A stretch of 63,114 bases of DNA from an uncultured Bacilli bacterium (GCA_947581835.1 CANPVV010000005.1:1-63114), one strand, 5' to 3'; shown: positions 55,083-63,114, counted from the stretch's first letter. A program made the numbers and translations. The notes: generated by a model from the letters alone, not told the origin.

Positions 55083-56090
55083 TTATTTCTCTATTTCTAA
55101 CTTTTCTAAAACATTTAAATAATCATCTAATATTTTTAAAAATTCTTCTTCACTCTTAGCCTTACAAATAAGTTCTTTATATATTTTTGCTTTAGGCATA
55201 CCTTTTAAATAATATAAAGCATGAGTTCTAATCTGCAATACTGCTGCCTTTACTCCTTTATCTTCTTTTATAAGTTCATAATGTTTCTTAATCATTAAAA
55301 TCTTTTCTTTATCAGTTGGCCTATCTATTATTTTTCCTTCTTCTAAATATGCCAAACACTCTTTAAATATCCATGGATTACCTAAAGCACCTCTTCCAAT
55401 CATTATTGCATCACAACCTGTCTCATCAAGCATTTTTTTGGCCTCTATCGCACTAGTTACATCCCCATTTCCAATAACGGGAATTTTTACAGCATCTTTA
55501 ACACTTTTTATTATTTTCCAATCAGCCTTACCTGTATAACCCTGTGCTCTAGTTCTTGCATGCACTGTTATAGCTTTTGCTCCATTTTCTTCCGCAATCT
55601 TTGCTACTTGAACAGCATTTATACTATCTTTATCCCAACCACTTCTAATTTTAATTGTAACTGGAACATTTACTGCTTTAACAACTTCTCTTACAATCTC
55701 TCCAATCTTTTGAGGATTTTTAAGTAAAGCACTACCCGCTTGAGCCCTCAAAGCTACTTTTGGTACTGGACACCCCATATTAATATCTATTATATCTGGT
55801 CTTTGCTTCTCCATAACAATCTTTGCAGCATCAACAAAAGTTTCAATATCACTCCCAAATATCTGTTGTACTATTGGTCTTTCACAATCTAAAGTCTTTA
55901 ATAAACTCAAAGTTTTATCATTTTCATAAACTAAAGCATTAGAACTAACCATTTCTGCAAAAATAAGCCCTGCTCCCATCTCTTTAACTATCCTTCGAAA
56001 AGCCGAATTAGAAATACCAGCCATAGGAGCTAAAACCAGTCTATTATCAATTTCTATATTACCTATCATCCATTTCATATCCATCACCAA
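55083..56090 (-). CDS. dusB: tRNA-dihydrouridine synthase B
   Basis: LAPMAG, DINMGCP, HART, GNGD, GRGALGNPW, upstream of lysS. Confidence 0.95.
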   Translation of the reverse strand: MVMDMKWMIGNIEIDNRLVLAPMAGISNSAFRRIVKEMGAGLIFAEMVSSNALVYENDKTLSLLKTLDCERPIVQQIFGSDIETFVDAAKIVMEKQRPDIIDINMGCPVPKVALRAQAGSALLKNPQKIGEIVREVVKAVNVPVTIKIRSGWDKDSINAVQVAKIAEENGAKAITVHARTRAQGYTGKADWKIIKSVKDAVKIPVIGNGDVTSAIEAKKMLDETGCDAIMIGRGALGNPWIFKECLAYLEEGKIIDRPTDKEKILMIKKHYELIKEDKGVKAAVLQIRTHALYYLKGMPKAKIYKELICKAKSEEEFLKILDDYLNVLEKLEIEK

Positions 56091-56099
56091 AATTAAAAA

Positions 56100-56128
56100 A
56101 GAATATCTAAACTCTTAAAGATATTCTT
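56100..56128 (-). terminator. Terminator after pduL
   Basis: AGAATATCT...AGATATTCT stem, T-run on the minus strand. Confidence 0.6.
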
Positions 56129-56175
56129 AATTATACTCTAAACTAAAGATTATTGCAATTATTTCTCTATCTCTA

Positions 56176-56754
56176 TTATTTCTCAATTTCTACTGTATCT
56201 CCAGTATTAAGCATAAAGCAATTAGCATCATCTTTATCAATATGTATTTCAAAGTAACCATTATCTGTTACTTTTACAAAAGCCTCCATAACTCCACCTT
56301 TATCATTTTCAACTTTAAGTTTAACTAAATCTTCATGTTTAAGTCCTAACTCTATTGCTTTACTCTGATTCATATGGACATGTCTTTCAGCTTGAATACA
56401 ACCTGTATCTAAATGTAGTTCGCCCTTAGGTCCAATAATTGTTATAGCCTCACTATCTTCAACATCTCCACTTTGTCTTACTGGGGGATTAAGTCCTAAT
56501 AATATTGCATCACTTCGTGATATTTCTACCTGATTATACTTTCTAAGAGGCCCAATTAATCTTACGTGTTCAATAACTCCTTTTTCAGTCTTAAGCGTAA
56601 CTGTCTGCATTGCAGCATACTCTCCTACCTGATTTAATGGCCTTTTAATAGATATTGGCTCATCAAATAATTTTTCATAATTTTCTTTCGTAAGATGCAC
56701 ATGTCTATTACTAACTGCAATAGTCCCGTATATTTTTTCTTTTCCCTGTTTCAT
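56176..56754 (-). CDS. pduL: Phosphate propanoyltransferase PduL
   Basis: VSNRHVHL, QVEIS.SD, RHVHM, HIDKDDAN. Confidence 0.93.
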   Translation of the reverse strand: MKQGKEKIYGTIAVSNRHVHLTKENYEKLFDEPISIKRPLNQVGEYAAMQTVTLKTEKGVIEHVRLIGPLRKYNQVEISRSDAILLGLNPPVRQSGDVEDSEAITIIGPKGELHLDTGCIQAERHVHMNQSKAIELGLKHEDLVKLKVENDKGGVMEAFVKVTDNGYFEIHIDKDDANCFMLNTGDTVEIEK

Positions 56755-56827
56755 TTTAAAACCTTCCTTCCTCTATATTTTACCATTAATTAATACAAAA
56801 AAATAGTTAAAAACTAAAAAATGAATC

Positions 56828-58291
56828 TTAAAGACCCATTTCTTTTCTTACCTCATCTAATACTTCTAACTCATTAAAATATATTTTTTCTCCCTTAATA
56901 TCCTGATATTCTTCATGACCTTTTCCCACTAATAATATCAAATCTCCATCTAATGCATTTAAACAAGCATATTTTATTGCATCTTTTCTATCAGGTATCA
57001 TAATATATTTAGCACCTACTCTATCTAAACCTACTTTTATATCTTTATTAATAAGTTCTATATCTTCAAAGCGGGGATTATCTTCAGTAATAATACATAA
57101 ATCACTTGCTCCTCCGATTATTTCTCCTAAATTATACCGTCTTTCTTTAGGGCGATTTCCTCCACCTCCAAAAACACTAACTAATCTCTTAGGTTTATAA
57201 TCTCTTAAAGTTTTAACTAACCCCCTCATTCCATCCTCTGTATGGGCATAATCAATTAATACTTTAAACTTAGGTGCAACTAAAGCTATCTCCATTCTTC
57301 CTCTTACACTAACATTTAGTAAAGCATCTTTTATCTTATCTAAATATACACCTAATTCCCTAGCAACCATTATTGCACATAAAGCATTATAAACATTAAA
57401 CTCTCCTGGCATACTTATTCTAAATATATCATTAACTAAACCTGAAGTCTTAAATTCTGTTCCTAAAAATTCTGAATCATTTAAAAATTTAATCTCATCT
57501 ACTTTTAATTGAGCATCATTTTTTATCGCATATGTTTTAATCGGTACCTCTACATTTTTAAATACCATCTCTAAATACTTAGAATCATTATTACTAATTA
57601 TTTTTTTACTATTTAAAAATAATTTATTTTTACACATAATATATTCTTCTTGACTTTCATGCTCACCAGGTCCAATATGATCTGTAGTTAAATTAGTCAA
57701 AACCCCTATCTCAAAAGTTATACCCGCAAGCCTATTAAGTTTAAAAGCTTGACTAGATGTTTCCATAGCAACATACTTAATTCCTGCATCAACCATTTCT
57801 CTAAAAGCTTTATGTACCTCATAAGACTCTGGTGTTGTATTATCTGTATGAATAACTTTATCTTTATACTTTATTCCAATACTTCCAATTAAACCACATG
57901 GATATCCAGCATTATTTAGAATATCTTTAATCATATGTGTAGTAGTAGTTTTACCAGTTGTTCCTGTAACTCCAATTTTCACTAATTCAGTATCTGGATT
58001 ACCAAAATAATTACTTGCCATATAAGATAAAGCAATTCTTGTATCATCAACTTTAATAACTGTAATATCTGAATCTATCTCTAAAAATTTAGAAATAACT
58101 ATAACTGTAGCTCCTTTTTTTATTGCATCTTTAATATATTCATGTCCATCAGTATTATAACCAACTAAAGCTACATATATATCCTTACTAGTTACTTTCC
58201 TACTATCATATTTAATATCATTTATTTCTTTATCTAAACTTCCTTTAATTAAAGTATAACTAACATTCTTTAAAATTTTTTCTAACTTCAT
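56828..58291 (-). CDS. murE: UDP-MurNAc-dipeptide--meso-diamino acid ligase
   Basis: GTTGKTT, TTPES, ETSSQ, DYAHT, DNPR, GKGHE. Confidence 0.95.
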   Translation of the reverse strand: MKLEKILKNVSYTLIKGSLDKEINDIKYDSRKVTSKDIYVALVGYNTDGHEYIKDAIKKGATVIVISKFLEIDSDITVIKVDDTRIALSYMASNYFGNPDTELVKIGVTGTTGKTTTTHMIKDILNNAGYPCGLIGSIGIKYKDKVIHTDNTTPESYEVHKAFREMVDAGIKYVAMETSSQAFKLNRLAGITFEIGVLTNLTTDHIGPGEHESQEEYIMCKNKLFLNSKKIISNNDSKYLEMVFKNVEVPIKTYAIKNDAQLKVDEIKFLNDSEFLGTEFKTSGLVNDIFRISMPGEFNVYNALCAIMVARELGVYLDKIKDALLNVSVRGRMEIALVAPKFKVLIDYAHTEDGMRGLVKTLRDYKPKRLVSVFGGGGNRPKERRYNLGEIIGGASDLCIITEDNPRFEDIELINKDIKVGLDRVGAKYIMIPDRKDAIKYACLNALDGDLILLVGKGHEEYQDIKGEKIYFNELEVLDEVRKEMGL

Positions 58292-58296
58292 TTATA

Positions 58297-59160
58297 TCAC
58301 TCACCTATAATATGTGAAACATCGATTTCACTTTCAAATACAAAATGTGATGGTCCCTTCATATATAATTCTCCTGTTTCTATTTCATATAAAATCTCTA
58401 AAGGTCCCCCAATTTGTTCTACCACACATTTATTAGAAGTTAACCCTAATTTATAACCAAAAACTACTGCTGAGGCACAACCTGTTCCACAACCAATTGT
58501 CTCTCCTGTACCTCTTTCCCATTCTCTAATCTTAATATATTCTCTATTTACTATTTGGGCAAAAGTAACATTAGTCTTCTTAGGAAATACCTCTAATTTA
58601 TGTTCAATCGCTGGTCCATATTTTTCTACCAAAAAGCTATCTACATCATCTACAAATATCACGGTATGAGGATTACCCCAAGATAAACTATTCACCTCAA
58701 AAGTTTTATCAAGTACTTCTATTTTTTCTTGCATAAAAGTATCTTTATCTGTCTTAACTGGAATTAAAGCACTATCAAAAATTGGTTTTCCAATATTTGC
58801 TTTAATATTACTAACTACTCCATCCTCTACTGTTAATTCCAACCGTTTTATTCCACCCAAAGTTTCAATAGTAAACTCTGTTTTATCCGTCATTTTATGA
58901 TCATAAACATATTTTCCTACACTTCTAAGCGCATTCCCACACATTTCAGCTTCACTTCCATCAGGATTAAACATACGCATTCGAAAAAAAGCTTTAGTCG
59001 ATGGACAAATAAGTACCATTCCATCACTACCTACTCCAAAATGACGATCTGAAACAAATTTAGCTAATAAATTTAAATTAGGAAGTTTCTGATTAATCGC
59101 ATCAATATACACATAATCATTCCCATAAGCCTGCATTTTTGTAAATCGCATTAATTTCAC
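58297..59160 (-). CDS. dapF: Diaminopimelate epimerase
   Basis: GNDY, EMCGNA, GNPH, ERGTGETIGCGTG, both catalytic Cys present. Confidence 0.93.
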   Translation of the reverse strand: MKLMRFTKMQAYGNDYVYIDAINQKLPNLNLLAKFVSDRHFGVGSDGMVLICPSTKAFFRMRMFNPDGSEAEMCGNALRSVGKYVYDHKMTDKTEFTIETLGGIKRLELTVEDGVVSNIKANIGKPIFDSALIPVKTDKDTFMQEKIEVLDKTFEVNSLSWGNPHTVIFVDDVDSFLVEKYGPAIEHKLEVFPKKTNVTFAQIVNREYIKIREWERGTGETIGCGTGCASAVVFGYKLGLTSNKCVVEQIGGPLEILYEIETGELYMKGPSHFVFESEIDVSHIIGE

Positions 59161-59163
59161 CTC

Positions 59164-60354
59164 TTATTTTAAAGCTTGTTCTAAATCATCAATAATATCT
59201 TGAGCATCTTCAATTCCCACTGATAAACGAAGTAAAGTATCTGTAATTCCTAATTTTTCTCTTATTTCTTCTTTAATCTCTGTATGTGTTCTACTAACTG
59301 GATGGGTAATTAAAGACTCAACTCCCCCTAAACTTTCTGCAAAAGTAATTAATTTAACTTTAGTAAGTAATTTATTTACTGTTTCCATACTATCAACTCT
59401 AAAAGATATCATACCTCCAAAACCTGTAGTTTGTCTTTTAGTAACTTGATAATCTTTATGATCTGGAAAACCTACATAATAAACTTTTTCAACTTTAGGA
59501 TGATTTCTTAAATATTCTGCCACCTTCATTGCATTTTCACTATGCTTATTCATTCTTAAAGCTAAAGTCTTAATTCCTCGCAGTAAAATCCAAGAATCCA
59601 TAGGTCCTAACCCAGCCCCATTTATATACATTTGAATTTCTAACTTTTCTCCAATACTTGCATCTTTAACTACTACAATACCCGCTAAAACGTCATTATG
59701 TCCTCCTAAATACTTAGTTCCACTATGAAGAACAATATCTGCTCCTAATGTTAAAGGCTTTTGATAATAAGGAGTTAAAAAAGTATTATCAACTACTACT
59801 AATGCTCCTACCTCATGACCAATCTTTGAGATTAATTCAATATCTGCTACTTTCATCATTGGATTAGTTGGTGTTTCAATTAAAATCATTTTTGTATTAG
59901 GTTTAATTGTTTTTTTAAGTAAATCTATATCTGATAAATCAATACTATCGTTTTCTATTCCATAAGGCTCTAAAACTTCATTAACGCATCTATAAGTTCC
60001 ACCATATACGTCATCGGAATAAATAATATGTTCTCCAGGATTTAAAAGTGAAGTTACTAACGAAACTGCTGCCATACCTGAAGTTACTGCAAAAGCTCTT
60101 TCTCCTTCTTCTAATATACACATTGTTCTTTCTAATTCTTCTCTCGTTGGATTAATACATCGTGAATAATTATATGGATCTGTCTTCTCTAAACCATGAT
60201 GCATAAAAGTTGCTGTCTGATAAATTGGATAACTAATTGAACCTGTATAAGGATCAACTCCATTTGCCCCATGAACCACTTTTGATTCAAACTTTAAATT
60301 TTCCTTTCTTGAATTTTCTTTGTAATCTTTAAAATTTTTCATATTTACCTCCAT
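59164..60354 (-). CDS. PLP-dependent trans-sulfuration enzyme (MetB/MetC/cystathionine gamma-lyase family)
   Basis: YSR..NPT, SGMAA, ETPTNP, DNTF, SGTKYLGGHND, ESLGGVESL. Confidence 0.92.
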   Translation of the reverse strand: MEVNMKNFKDYKENSRKENLKFESKVVHGANGVDPYTGSISYPIYQTATFMHHGLEKTDPYNYSRCINPTREELERTMCILEEGERAFAVTSGMAAVSLVTSLLNPGEHIIYSDDVYGGTYRCVNEVLEPYGIENDSIDLSDIDLLKKTIKPNTKMILIETPTNPMMKVADIELISKIGHEVGALVVVDNTFLTPYYQKPLTLGADIVLHSGTKYLGGHNDVLAGIVVVKDASIGEKLEIQMYINGAGLGPMDSWILLRGIKTLALRMNKHSENAMKVAEYLRNHPKVEKVYYVGFPDHKDYQVTKRQTTGFGGMISFRVDSMETVNKLLTKVKLITFAESLGGVESLITHPVSRTHTEIKEEIREKLGITDTLLRLSVGIEDAQDIIDDLEQALK

Positions 60355-60741
60355 TTCAAGGATTTCCCTTAAACTAAGTATACCGATAATAATTGTTATT
60401 TGTCAAGTAAATGCCTATCAAACTTTACACTTAAATCTAAAAATTTTTGTAATTTCCAGTACTATTCCTTATCTAAATTATATTCTAAAAACCCAAATAA
60501 GTACCCAAATAAAAAAAATACTTCTTATTTCAAATCCTAAAATTCAAAATATTCGTATTTTCTAATCATTATCTTTTATTTATTATTCTTTTTATTTTAT
60601 CCCTTTTATCTATTATCTCTTATATCTCTTGTTTACTATTTATTATATATCATTTAATATATTTATTATTTATCATATATTAATTTTTATTTATTGTATA
60701 CATAATTTAATGTATTTATTAGTCTATATTTATTATATCTC

Positions 60742-61311
60742 TTATCTATTATTTATTTGAAACAATCTATCTATCTTCTCATAAGCCTCATCAAAATTAT
60801 CCATTGCTAACTCTAAAACTTTTATATTATCCAGTTTTTTAACCTCAGTAAGTACCTTTTTATAAGCTTCCTGCTGTTTAACACTACTCTCCAAACTAAA
60901 AGCCTGATAATTATGATGCACTCTCTTTAATCTCTCACTATATATATTAACGTCTTCTAAATATAAAGATATATAATACATTTCATAGTCTAAACCTCCA
61001 AACATTTCTAACAATTCTTGAAAAGTATCATCATAATCATATTCTTTATATCCCAATTTCGCATAAACATAATCTGAGAAAAAAGTTCTATCAAAAATTA
61101 AATTAACCTCACAATCTTCCATTTTCTTCATATATTCTAGTAAAGCTAAATACATTCTTCTACTTTTTTCTTTTCCACTTTTAGTTTTATCTTTATTACC
61201 TGTAAGCCTATATAAATTAGAAGCTTCTAAATTTTCTCTTAAATAATTTGCCAAAGTTGTTTTACCACAACCTTGAGGCCCCTCAATAATAATACATTTC
61301 ATTACAAACAC
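60742..61311 (-). CDS. Deoxynucleoside monophosphate/thymidylate kinase-like P-loop protein (likely start 61302)
   Basis: IEGPQGCGKTT, IFDR. TAATG overlap with the thyX stop codon. Confidence 0.75.
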   Translation of the reverse strand: MFVMKCIIIEGPQGCGKTTLANYLRENLEASNLYRLTGNKDKTKSGKEKSRRMYLALLEYMKKMEDCEVNLIFDRTFFSDYVYAKLGYKEYDYDDTFQELLEMFGGLDYEMYYISLYLEDVNIYSERLKRVHHNYQAFSLESSVKQQEAYKKVLTEVKKLDNIKVLELAMDNFDEAYEKIDRLFQINNR

Positions 61312-62822
61312 CTAGCTTTCTTATCTTTCTTTTTTAATTCCAAAATTTGCTTGATTCTACCACAAGACTCTTTACCTTCCCCACAAAACATTTCGGTAAC
61401 ACAAGTAGGCCCTAAAACTTTACTAAATATTTCACAACCTAACTCTTTATTTAACTCTTCATGCATTCCATAAGCCATTTCTCTAGTCTCCCATTGTGCT
61501 TTAGTGCATTCTCTAAGTCTTAAAATATGCTCCAAAGTCTTACCATTCATATTAGTTACAACATTAACCATATTACCTGAAAGAGTAAAGTAAATTAAAT
61601 CTTCTTCTCTTATATTATAATCATTTTTAAAATGTAAAAATACCTCATTATTTTTCCTAAATATCTCCTCATATTCCTCTAAACACTTAAACCTTACTTT
61701 AGGTGGTATCTTATATTGTTCTAAATCAACTATCGGTACAAAATCAGGTATTAAAATATCATGTGTTCTGTGTCTTGTTAAATGAGTCAAAACTGCAAAA
61801 GATATTGGTATTTGAAACTGAAAATTAACCTGGGTAAGTTCAAGCTTATCTCCCTGAAAAACAATTTTTCTCATAAGTTCGTAACTAAATTCTTTATTTT
61901 CATCCTTTAAATTTTTATAAACTTTAACTGCCTCATCATAAGAAAACTGATATCTTCGCATTATTGCTCCAATTAAAATAGTATCATCAATATTTTTACT
62001 ACAACTAATTAATTTAGGTTTATCTAAAATCTTATACTCTCTATTGCTTATTTGTTTATTTAAATATTCTAATACTTCATCTTTATCCCTTATCGGTTTA
62101 TCTTCTATTAAATCCATAATATAAGGCACATTTTCTCTGGCAATATCTTTTAACTTTTCCCCAAACTCTTTTATTTCACTAATCCTAGCATACTTAGTTT
62201 TCGTAAATTTAATAATCATATCTTTTAAAACATGAGCATCTATTCCCATCATAATATTTGAGTGATATGCATAAGGTAAAACAAATCTTGCATCTTCTAA
62301 AGGAATACCTAACTTAACTAAATCATCATATTTTTTAAATAAATATCTCATATATTCTTGATATTCTTCTCTAACTTTATCATTATCTTCAATTAAATTA
62401 CCCAACTTATCATGAAAATTAGGTGTATAAAAACCTACTTTTGAAAAATCTACTTCTCTTCTTGATTTAATTGTAAAAGAAGCAAATCTCTCAGCAATAA
62501 TTGTTTGCTCTATAATTGGTGAAACGTCTTTTATTGCAAATACTAAATAATCATGATCAGTAATTGAATCATGTCCCATCTTAATAACTCTTTTAGCAAA
62601 TTTAACATTATCATCAAAACTTGCTTCTTGATTTATTTTTAAAATATCAAAAACACTACCCGGAAATCTTGATAATTTCCCTGCCGTTGCTACTTTTAGT
62701 GTTCTCTCATATTTTTCTAAATTCTTAATTTCCTCAATTACCTCTGGATTATCTATTCCTTTACTCTTTAATAAATCTTCTATTTTTTTATAATCAAGAG
62801 CCCCAAGCAATTCTATTTCCAT
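61302..62822 (-). CDS. thyX: FAD-dependent thymidylate synthase with two ThyX domains
   Basis: GHDSITDH, SRR, EDARFVLP in domain 1. LTRHR and LRECTKAQWETR in domain 2. Confidence 0.88.
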   Translation of the reverse strand: MEIELLGALDYKKIEDLLKSKGIDNPEVIEEIKNLEKYERTLKVATAGKLSRFPGSVFDILKINQEASFDDNVKFAKRVIKMGHDSITDHDYLVFAIKDVSPIIEQTIIAERFASFTIKSRREVDFSKVGFYTPNFHDKLGNLIEDNDKVREEYQEYMRYLFKKYDDLVKLGIPLEDARFVLPYAYHSNIMMGIDAHVLKDMIIKFTKTKYARISEIKEFGEKLKDIARENVPYIMDLIEDKPIRDKDEVLEYLNKQISNREYKILDKPKLISCSKNIDDTILIGAIMRRYQFSYDEAVKVYKNLKDENKEFSYELMRKIVFQGDKLELTQVNFQFQIPISFAVLTHLTRHRTHDILIPDFVPIVDLEQYKIPPKVRFKCLEEYEEIFRKNNEVFLHFKNDYNIREEDLIYFTLSGNMVNVVTNMNGKTLEHILRLRECTKAQWETREMAYGMHEELNKELGCEIFSKVLGPTCVTEMFCGEGKESCGRIKQILELKKKDKKARCL

Positions 62823-62954
62823 ACCTCTAACCTCTACTCTCTACCAATTATTATATCGATAAACACTAACCATTTCAACAAATTTGACAATTATTTACAA
62901 TCATCTATTCTTAAAAATTAACTTTTTTAAAATTTTTTAACTTTTTTTAATATC

Positions 62955-62998
62955 GTCGACATGGTTCGACATTTTTCGACATGGACTTGTGTTATAGT
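62955..62998 (+). promoter_or_regulatory. Three tandem Spo0A-box-like heptamers with an extended -10
   Basis: GTCGACA, TTCGACA, TTCGACA at a 10-bp period. TG-T-TATAGT at 62990-62998. Confidence 0.6.
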
Positions 62999-63041
62999 AG
63001 AATCATTTCTTTTATTTAAAAGAAATTAGAAAGGAGATTTT

Positions 63042-63114
63042 ATGCCAACAAAAGAAAAAATTTTTATTAGTTTGAGTGATGATTTATTATTTAAAGAAAC
63101 TTTCTCTAATATCT
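63042..63114 (+). CDS. 5' end of a probable Rpn/PD-(D/E)XK family nuclease gene (partial)
   Basis: AAAGGAG RBS, MPTKEKIFISLSDDLLFKETFSNI contains the D..FK..F motif, runs off the window. Confidence 0.55.
   Translation, partial: MPTKEKIFISLSDDLLFKETFSNI

Follow-up and report, generated by a model that had tools for sequence, protein, structure and literature searches.

A conserved PLP enzyme-DapF-MurE cassette in gut Bacilli and Clostridia and its possible role in making a thioether cross-linker for the cell wall

How does a bacterium that retains the ligase for a meso-diamino-acid cell wall obtain that amino acid when the genes for making diaminopimelic acid (DAP) are not found in its genome? 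This question is raised by three adjoining genes on contig C5 (CANPVV010000005.1) of the uncultured Bacilli bacterium assembly GCA_947581835.1, a stretch of 63,114 nucleotides that is referred to as a whole as the window. The genes encode a pyridoxal 5'-phosphate (PLP) enzyme of the Cys/Met-metabolism family, an epimerase (DapF2) and a ligase (MurE2), and are referred to together as the cassette. An earlier note made from the sequence of the window had proposed that they form a natural shortcut in which a thioether diamino acid, lanthionine or cystathionine, is made, epimerised and ligated, bypassing DAP synthesis. Having followed the cassette through its host genome and its relatives, we give about even chances to the reading that it makes and installs the cross-linking amino acid at position 3 of the stem peptide by way of an L,L-thioether diamino acid and without the aspartate-derived DAP pathway. 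In the proposed scheme the PLP enzyme would form an L,L-thioether diamino-dicarboxylic acid by joining sulfur amino acids, DapF2 would invert one alpha-carbon of this product to give the meso (D,L) form and MurE2 would ligate the meso form to UDP-N-acetylmuramic acid (MurNAc)-L-Ala-D-Glu. The likeliest first step would be the condensation of two L-cysteine to L,L-lanthionine with release of hydrogen sulfide (H2S), and a less likely one the formation of cystathionine from cysteine and homocysteine or methionine. Clostridia would run the cassette beside a normal DAP route, and for small-genome Bacilli such as the host of the window it would be the only route left.

Conservation of the cassette and its host genomes

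We scanned one genome per species with the DapF protein, which gave 290 relatives, and used the best 80 loci, which comprise 29 of Bacilli-type (DapF 74-82% identical) and 51 of Clostridia/Lachnospiraceae-type (63-68%). The PLP gene lies immediately upstream of DapF and on the same strand in all 80 loci. MurE follows DapF in 78 of the 79 loci that extend past DapF, with a coverage of at least 60% in 74 of them and with a truncated start alone in the other 4, where the contig stops or an insert lies before MurE; one locus stops within DapF. A second sample of 201 genomes from the family of one carrier (G031) gave 10 genomes with a cassette-type DapF at E<=1e-95 and an eleventh (G362) that was found via its PLP gene, and in 11 of 11 a cassette PLP gene (54-65% identical) adjoins DapF. 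These counts rule out chance synteny and bear out the conservation of the operon on which the earlier proposal depended. The remaining 48 PLP matches in this family are 46-56% identical, and one genome (G326) carries a 58%-identical PLP gene with no DapF2 or MurE2 within the 9.5-kb stretch examined. When 400 flanking open reading frames (ORFs) from the 80 loci were clustered, no family common to both host groups emerged as a fourth partner, whether for cysteine or cystine transport or as cysE or cysK, and the flanking genes are unlike between Bacilli-type and Clostridia-type loci.

The genome to which the window belongs (G000) is 1.29 Mb in 59 contigs, is rated 99% complete and appears to come from a small-genome gut member of the Bacilli resembling RF39. 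The sequencing runs that hold at least half of the sampled words (X1-X4) are DNA runs of one study and are labelled rabbit gut metagenome. Family searches found no dapA, lysA or asd in the genome and only a 28.7-bit partial match to dapB, and tblastn with clostridial queries from related loci gave no match in the genome to DapL, DapA or DapB at E<=1e-3. The earlier observation that no dapA, dapB, dapL or lysA is near the cassette thus extends to the genome, in which none of these and no asd was found (the family searches did not extend to other met genes). The genome holds a single true PF01053 gene, a single DapF and a single MurE, all three being those of the cassette. MurC, MurD and MurF are present by family search, with Ddl adjoining MurF, and the MurC-like protein scores 430.9 bits as MurC (cut-off 335.1) versus 184.6 bits as the recycling ligase Mpl (cut-off 388.7). 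The retention of MurC, MurD and MurF, with a MurC-like protein that is not Mpl, indicates that the stem peptide is built stepwise and not from recycled tripeptide, and since the stepwise ligases are present and the DAP genes were not found, the wall precursor would be made without any known DAP source.

The same searches gave no match in the genome to alanine racemase (alr; TIGR00492 or PF01168), glutamate racemase (murI; TIGR00067 or PF01177) or class IV aminotransferase (Dat; PF01063). D-Ala and D-Glu would thus have to be imported or made by a route other than these enzymes, a point that the earlier note had overlooked and that opens rival explanations in racemisation and scavenging. The further PLP candidates seen were GlyA (on C3) and a 409-aa protein on C16 with a weak methionine-gamma-lyase-like match only.

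Of the 80 genomes 50 were profiled, 10 of Bacilli-type and 40 of Clostridia-type. None of the 10 Bacilli-type genomes has dapA over the cut-off, DapL or a lysA-level score. Among the 40 Clostridia-type genomes dapA is intact in 32, split into two frames in 6 and not found in 2, DapL is present in 31 and lysA-level scores are reached in 16. As it stands beside an intact dapA in 32 of 40 Clostridia carriers, the cassette is no general DAP bypass. The split dapA genes (G011, G013, G014, G016, G017 and G019; the coordinates for G017 are in Table 1) consist of two overlapping frames, with in-frame stops in 4 of 6 and the break at residue ~155-165 in 5 of 6. Because one of the six is in a record titled circular hifiasm assembly, the split probably reflects the inheritance of a broken gene rather than faulty assembly.

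The 10 Bacilli-type genomes each hold a single DapF and a single MurE, namely the cassette copies, and among the 40 Clostridia carriers a second DapF is found in 37 and a second MurE in 38. Identity to the window proteins is 27-51% for the second DapF copies and 36-45% for the second MurE copies. G031 has its canonical copies elsewhere in the order dapA-dapB-dapF-murE-murF, and DapL often adjoins the canonical DapF; carriers of this kind hold two parallel units, one of DAP synthesis genes with DapF1 and MurE1 and one of the PLP gene with DapF2 and MurE2. In the DapF tree the 79 cassette rows form one clade, with a support of 100 in the SH-like approximate likelihood ratio test (SH-aLRT) and a stem of 0.49, within which the Bacilli (96) and the Clostridia (98) form a branch each. 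The 74 cassette rows of the MurE tree (73 loci and the window) likewise group together (SH-aLRT 99), separately from the co-resident copies, and within this clade the Bacilli (100) sit beside small-genome Clostridia. The PLP tree is incongruent with that of DapF and mixes Bacilli and Clostridia in three places, with adjacency kept throughout. DapF2 and MurE2 are fused into one ORF of 772-790 aa in 21 loci, a fusion of single origin (SH-aLRT 98) that is present in a record titled circular hifiasm assembly (L043). As the fusion partner of DapF is MurE and not MurD, the epimerase would be tied to the position-3 amino acid.

Two further arrangements were seen in Lachnospiraceae. Two loci from large genomes (L077 and L078) have two tandem MurE genes after DapF2, the second of which groups with the canonical type, and both ligases are thus found in one locus. 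Four other loci (L108-L111) encode DapF-like proteins that have serine in place of both catalytic cysteines (motifs KSGNG and ASGTG); these proteins still score 229-243 bits on TIGR00652 and form a long branch of their own.

We also sampled the window's own order with 151 genomes. A DapF-like match of any kind at E<=1e-20 was present in 9 of the 151 and none was found in 142, and a cassette-type DapF (at least 68% identity) occurs only in the window's genus, in 4 of 4 members. MurE was found in 139 of the 151 genomes and, besides the four of the genus, is at most 50% identical among the matches listed; the non-cassette MurE examined in the order carry DDPR, EDPR, SDNPR or TEDN[SN]R instead of TEDNPR. 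One genome of the genus (G174) has a cassette MurE and a native-type MurE together. This distribution and the mixed PLP tree fit a transfer of the whole unit between lineages, and the arrival of a ligase together with DapF, where most genomes are without DapF, is sensible if the unit supplies its own substrate. Together with the paralogy and the fusion, the distribution strengthens the case for a self-contained unit of three genes. In six loci (L138-L143, of G186, G057, G138, G133, G149 and G077) MurE is 45-50% identical to the cassette MurE and has DNSR or DNNR in place of DNPR; these genomes gave no DapF match and have no PLP gene within ~1.5 kb, and their MurE may be an offshoot of the cassette ligase with a changed substrate.

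Protein features bearing on the proposed chemistry

The PLP enzyme is a member of PF01053 (Cys_Met_Meta_PP; 505 bits against a gathering cut-off of 27) and of fold type I, a family whose enzymes make and break C-S bonds at beta and gamma carbons. Its best NCBIfam model is NF005810 for cystathionine gamma-lyase (CGL)/homocysteine desulfhydrase, at 496.1 bits against a cut-off of 594, and it is below the cut-off for all 25 listed NCBIfam models. Falling below every equivalog cut-off, it should not be filed as CGL/MccB, cystathionine gamma-synthase (CGS)/MetB, cystathionine beta-lyase (CBL)/MetC or methionine gamma-lyase (MGL). The nearest solved relatives are 7d7o (430 bits) and 7mcb (376 bits); the enzyme keeps the catalytic lysine motif SGTKY, as aligned with these structures, together with YGGT and LRLSVG. 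In the 76 full-length cassette PLP enzymes the Gly of the usual family motif SR[ST]GNPT is gone from all, GHSD is changed to GHND and MTHAS is replaced, a pattern that bears the marks of a separate subfamily.

DapF2 scores 258.8 bits on TIGR00652 (cut-off 114.65) and 183 bits on PF01678 in two stretches. In an alignment to 9mro it retains the two catalytic cysteines and each of the 11 residues named as DAP contacts in Anabaena DapF, and the conserved positions in Anabaena numbering are Asn13, Asn66, Cys75, Gly76, Asn77, Asn164, Asn197, Glu215, Arg216, Cys224, Gly225 and Thr226. Passages of the study of the Anabaena enzyme with bound aziDAP name the contact residues and describe an Asn/Asn/Asn/Glu-Arg set that grips the distal end of the ligand (PMC12039745). 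With these contacts kept the substrate of DapF2 should be a DAP-like alpha,alpha'-diamino-dicarboxylate and not histidine or a simple amino acid. DapF2 further has Gly at the position of Anabaena Gly47 and an Ala-Glu-Met loop. Gly47 and a Glu-Met loop are linked, in sections of the same article, to DapFs whose rate of epimerisation is as high with L,L-lanthionine as with DAP, and Haemophilus DapF, which has Gln44, is given there as reaching ~20% on L,L-lanthionine relative to DAP (PMC12039745). The co-resident DapF1 copies share the Gly and the loop however, and these two features do not single out DapF2. Its signature consists of QAYGND, found in 77 of 79 copies versus [HTQ]G[LC]GND in other DapFs, of WGNPH versus MGNPH and NVTF versus NVEF, and of a Gly before and a Cys after the second catalytic-cysteine motif (IGCGTGC). 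Both QAYGND and ETIGCGTG, the residues of the window's DapF that had been noticed as non-canonical, are present.

MurE2 scores 488 bits on NF001126, the DAP-type model (cut-off 373), and 338.8 bits on the L-lysine-type model NF010628 (cut-off 536). The DNPR motif that the earlier note had read as a mark of meso-diamino acids is present as TEDNPRFE, and the P-loop GTTGKT and GKGHE are likewise kept. DNPR is described in part of PMC3681970 as the key motif of authenticated DAP-type MurE. Changes peculiar to the MurE2 clade are small, with T[EMC]DNPR versus TSDNPR and GGGGNR versus GCGG[DN]R.

A PLP family with C-S chemistry, an epimerase that would recognise both ends of its substrate and a meso-diamino-acid ligase are most simply linked by a thioether diamino acid. 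Lanthionine is a more likely product than cystathionine because it is isosteric with DAP, needs no homoserine (asd was not found) and has precedents in Fusobacterium and Escherichia coli. Human CGL makes lanthionine from two cysteines and lanthionine formation is a side reaction of CGL. The earlier proposal is partly supported. Neither of its two computable refuting conditions holds, in that no DAP pathway was found in the host and the linkage is conserved, with the product itself being drawn from family chemistry only.

Alternatives to a thioether cross-linker

Several observations weigh against a thioether product. The PLP enzyme has degradative lyases for its nearest characterised relatives, the best solved one included, the MurE2 motifs cannot separate DAP from lanthionine, and at one locus (L041) PLP and DapF2 genes are followed by a glucan phosphorylase with no MurE2. 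Among the 8 small Clostridia with a split or absent dapA, 6 still have both DapF and MurE in a second copy (G016 and G036 have one MurE), and this retention in spite of the state of dapA suggests that DAP salvage may exist there. In four genomes (G015, G030, G040 and G047) the sole other DapF copy found has both catalytic cysteines changed to serine, and a further three (G018, G023 and G044) are probably in the same state, judged by score band only. All seven have dapA and DapL, and 5 of 7 have a lysA-level match (not G018 and G044). As the only DapF found with both cysteines in some Lachnospiraceae, beside a full DAP pathway, DapF2 probably also handles DAP, and in at least 4 of them it probably epimerises LL-DAP, perhaps as a generalist. 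Part of a review table of wall types leaves Roseburia and several other Lachnospiraceae genera blank. Lastly, since alr, murI and Dat were not found the host would obtain D-amino acids otherwise, so that an import of DAP is not far-fetched, and passages of a published survey propose muropeptide scavenging for RF39 (PMC10868615).

Several of these points are accommodated by an explanation in which both DapF2 and MurE2 work on DAP in the ordinary way, the small-genome Bacilli take up LL- or meso-DAP, or fragments of wall, from the gut and the PLP enzyme carries out an unrelated reaction on sulfur amino acids, such as desulfhydration of cysteine or homocysteine, and is merely co-transcribed. The DAP contacts kept in DapF2 and the DNPR kept in MurE2 agree with it, as does a host that already needs D-amino acids from outside or enzymes other than the known ones. 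We nevertheless regard salvage of DAP as unlikely. A cell that imports meso-DAP has no need of DapF or of the PLP enzyme, yet the two stand beside MurE in 29 of 29 Bacilli loci in genomes of 1.0-1.5 Mb, and MurC, MurD and MurF are kept together with a MurC-like protein that does not score as Mpl. It would also leave unexplained why the PLP gene adjoins DapF in every locus despite its incongruent tree and why Clostridia carry a second pair of DapF and MurE. The racemases that were not found, in a genome with MurC to MurF and Ddl present, suggest a different role again, namely that in reduced Bacilli the PLP enzyme is an alanine (and/or glutamate) racemase and DapF a glutamate racemase, in which case the operon would provide the Mur ligases with D-Ala and D-Glu and with no new diamino acid; alr is present in 1 and murI in 4 of the 10 related Bacilli. 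Parts of PMC3935232 report the rescue of a D-Ala auxotroph when E. coli MetC is overexpressed and the replacement of alanine racemase by Wolbachia MetC, and parts of PMC5885031 report glutamate racemase activity for Wolbachia and Thermotoga cystathionine beta-lyases and a bifunctional Chlamydia DapF that is also a D-Glu racemase. These moonlighting enzymes belong to the same two families and occur in genomes that make peptidoglycan precursors without alr or murI, but they are ordinary MetC and DapF proteins with no conserved trio, whereas the cassette is also kept beside alr (in the relative G002) or murI (in G001, G003, G005 and G006). It is likewise kept in Clostridia with alr in 28 and murI in 33 of 40, and among the 8 whose dapA is split or absent murI is found in every one and alr in 5. 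DapF2 reaches 92.5 bits on the chlamydial bifunctional model NF038284 (cut-off 350), its fusion partner is MurE and not MurD, and the source of the position-3 amino acid would still have to be explained. A racemase role is thus rather improbable and fails as an account of what the cassette mainly does; for the reduced Bacilli it is attractive as a second, additional role.

Two parallel sets of DapF and MurE in most Clostridia carriers, a DpaA-like gene downstream in 13 fusion-type loci and the MurE variants DDPR, EDPR, DNSR and DNNR in the window's order, which suggest that the chemistry of position 3 is labile, could also point to another non-DAP diamino acid or, in Clostridia, to a product outside the ordinary wall precursor such as that of a sporulation- or condition-specific wall. 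We think this very doubtful, as the cassette MurE is the sole MurE in the window genome and in 10 of 10 related Bacilli and must there serve the ordinary wall, DapF2 has distal-site residues that call for an alpha,alpha'-diamino-dicarboxylate and the known chemistry of the PLP family is C-S bond making and breaking. Returning to the thioether cross-linker, the wider picture would be one in which a horizontally mobile cassette gives gut Clostridia and small-genome Bacilli a DAP-independent thioether wall and in which the most reduced carriers, where alr, murI and Dat were not found, may also rely on the PLP enzyme and DapF2 for D-Ala and D-Glu. Every unusual wall amino acid would then come from two enzymes. 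We hold this combined picture tentatively, as something short of an even chance.

Locus organisation, known systems and significance

The features of the cassette and of the other loci mentioned are collected in Table 1. All three genes are on the minus strand, in agreement with the co-oriented trio described earlier. Of the two gaps reported then, the 5 bp from the DapF stop to the MurE ATG stand, and the 3 bp between the PLP gene and DapF apply only to the GTG start at 59160 chosen by the ORF caller. The sequence AAGAGGTG after the PLP stop precedes an ATG at 59151, which is the more probable start of DapF and gives a gap of 12 bp. Both junctions look translationally coupled. The promoter-like site upstream of the PLP gene matches the consensus at 11 of 12 positions and is the top one of 37 such sites in the region; as the shuffle mean is 32.8, the sites are not in excess and this one is a weak pointer only. 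Typical methionine and cysteine genes of Firmicutes carry an S-box or T-box leader, unlike the cassette. The window gave zero Rfam matches at E<=1 across 56000-63114, in line with the earlier reading that no T-box or S-adenosylmethionine riboswitch is present, and in 13 related loci the region before the operon likewise gave no regulatory leader in Rfam. The sole Rfam match came from the Lachnospiraceae locus L077, where the PLP gene and DapF2 are ~550 bp apart and a TwoAYGGAY RNA (RF01731, 80 bits) lies between them on the opposite strand.

Table 1 Positions of the cassette genes, neighbouring features and loci referred to in the text
Feature	Location	Strand	Remarks
Cassette PLP enzyme, Cys/Met-metabolism family	window 59164-60354	minus	396 aa ORF; proposed L,L-thioether diamino acid synthase
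Cassette DapF (DapF2), PLP-independent two-cysteine epimerase	window 58297-59160	minus	287 aa ORF
Cassette MurE (MurE2), meso-diamino-acid type ligase	window 56828-58291	minus	487 aa ORF
Promoter-like site TTGACA, 18 nt, TATACT	window 60377-60406	minus	ends ~23 nt upstream of the PLP ATG
ThyX-like protein	window 60742-62822	minus	506 aa; two Thy1 stretches; upstream of cassette; positions include the overlapping P-loop kinase-like ORF
PduL-type phosphate propanoyltransferase	window 56176-56754	minus	206.9 bits, just below the cut-off of 209
Ddl	C3:35051-36064		adjoins MurF
MurF	C3:36082-37443		
Split dapA	G017:C1:708635-709466		two overlapping frames
TwoAYGGAY RNA	L077:4508-4670	minus	RF01731
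Tandem MurE genes	L077:6008-9073		after DapF2
Tandem MurE genes	L078:6087-9113		after DapF2
Cys-to-Ser DapF-like protein	L108:4053-4910		
Cys-to-Ser DapF-like protein	L109:3927-4832		
Cys-to-Ser DapF-like protein	L110:3975-4835		
Cys-to-Ser DapF-like protein	L111:4068-4928		

Upstream of the cassette the ORF of the ThyX-like protein is overlapped by that of a 189-aa P-loop kinase-like protein with weak thymidylate-kinase matches, and this pair was found again in Bacilli-type loci only. The PduL-type gene begins 73 nt downstream of MurE with no terminator-like site between them and may be co-transcribed with the cassette; it is followed by dusB in Bacilli-type loci and is not beside the cassette in Clostridia. 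The commonest neighbours in Clostridia are a pyrophosphatase, a TPR protein, a DpaA-like protein, HlyIII, an AraC regulator and Ldh.

The closest natural parallel is Fusobacterium nucleatum, which according to passages of PMC11602996 has a natural meso-lanthionine wall without a DAP pathway, its lanthionine being made from cysteine with release of H2S by the PLP enzyme CysK1 (FN1220). The same passages identify its DapF homologue FN1732 as the histidine racemase HisR, whose knockout is not lethal, and name no dedicated epimerase (PMC11602996). The likeness would lie in a thioether replacing DAP, a PLP synthase and a missing DAP pathway. The synthases differ however, the cassette enzyme belonging to PF01053 with lesser Pfam matches to other aminotransferase-type families, whereas CysK1 is of the CysK/CBS kind and fold type II. 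If the cassette enzyme is a lanthionine synthase it would thus be one by analogy only and not by membership of the CysK1 family. A further difference is that the cassette has a linked DapF paralogue, fused in 21 loci, with all DAP contacts and a dedicated MurE.

Engineered E. coli offers the same three-step logic of thioether supply by a transsulfuration-family enzyme, epimerisation by DapF and installation by MurE. In the strains associated with Richaud (1993) and Mengin-Lecreulx (1994) MetB is said to supply the thioether. Those were laboratory mutants relying on housekeeping enzymes, whereas the cassette is natural and conserved and has dedicated paralogues. E. coli lysate is cited in part of PMC12039745 (from Richaud 1993) as epimerising L,L-lanthionine only with dapF, and lanthionine as able to replace DAP in the wall. 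The canonical DapL-type DAP pathway uses the same epimerase and ligase families, and the cassette proteins pass the DapF and DAP-type MurE models. In the cassette however the PLP gene stands in place of dapA and dapB, and its proteins form separate clades with motifs of their own and persist where DAP genes were not found. MccB-type CGL/homocysteine desulfhydrases are the nearest characterised relatives of the PLP enzyme and have the same catalytic lysine and PLP-site motifs, but the cassette enzyme is below their cut-off, has replaced motifs in the active-site region and is found in a cell-wall and not a sulfur-metabolism context.

Thioether walls and the three-step logic are thus known, and the gene set, the dedicated paralogues, the fusion and the hosts are new. 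Our literature search, which covered few subscription journals, found no description of a PLP-DapF-MurE cassette or of paralogous DapF and MurE in these groups, and none of a thioether wall in any organism other than Fusobacterium. The amino acid at position 3 of the stem peptide sets the chemistry of cross-linking and the recognition of the wall by host NOD1, and part of a review indicates that meso-lanthionine peptides are NOD1 ligands too. Passages of a survey of RF39 leave these bacteria with DAP-type walls and "steps missing" and invoke scavenging or "unidentified redundant genes" (PMC10868615), for which the cassette is a concrete candidate. If the thioether reading is true the cassette would be the first genetically defined pathway to a lanthionine or cystathionine wall with a dedicated epimerase, the step still missing in Fusobacterium. 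It would account for the loss of the DAP/lysine pathway in lineages that nevertheless keep a meso-diamino-acid wall, and it would add an H2S-releasing reaction of wall synthesis to the sulfur metabolism of the gut.

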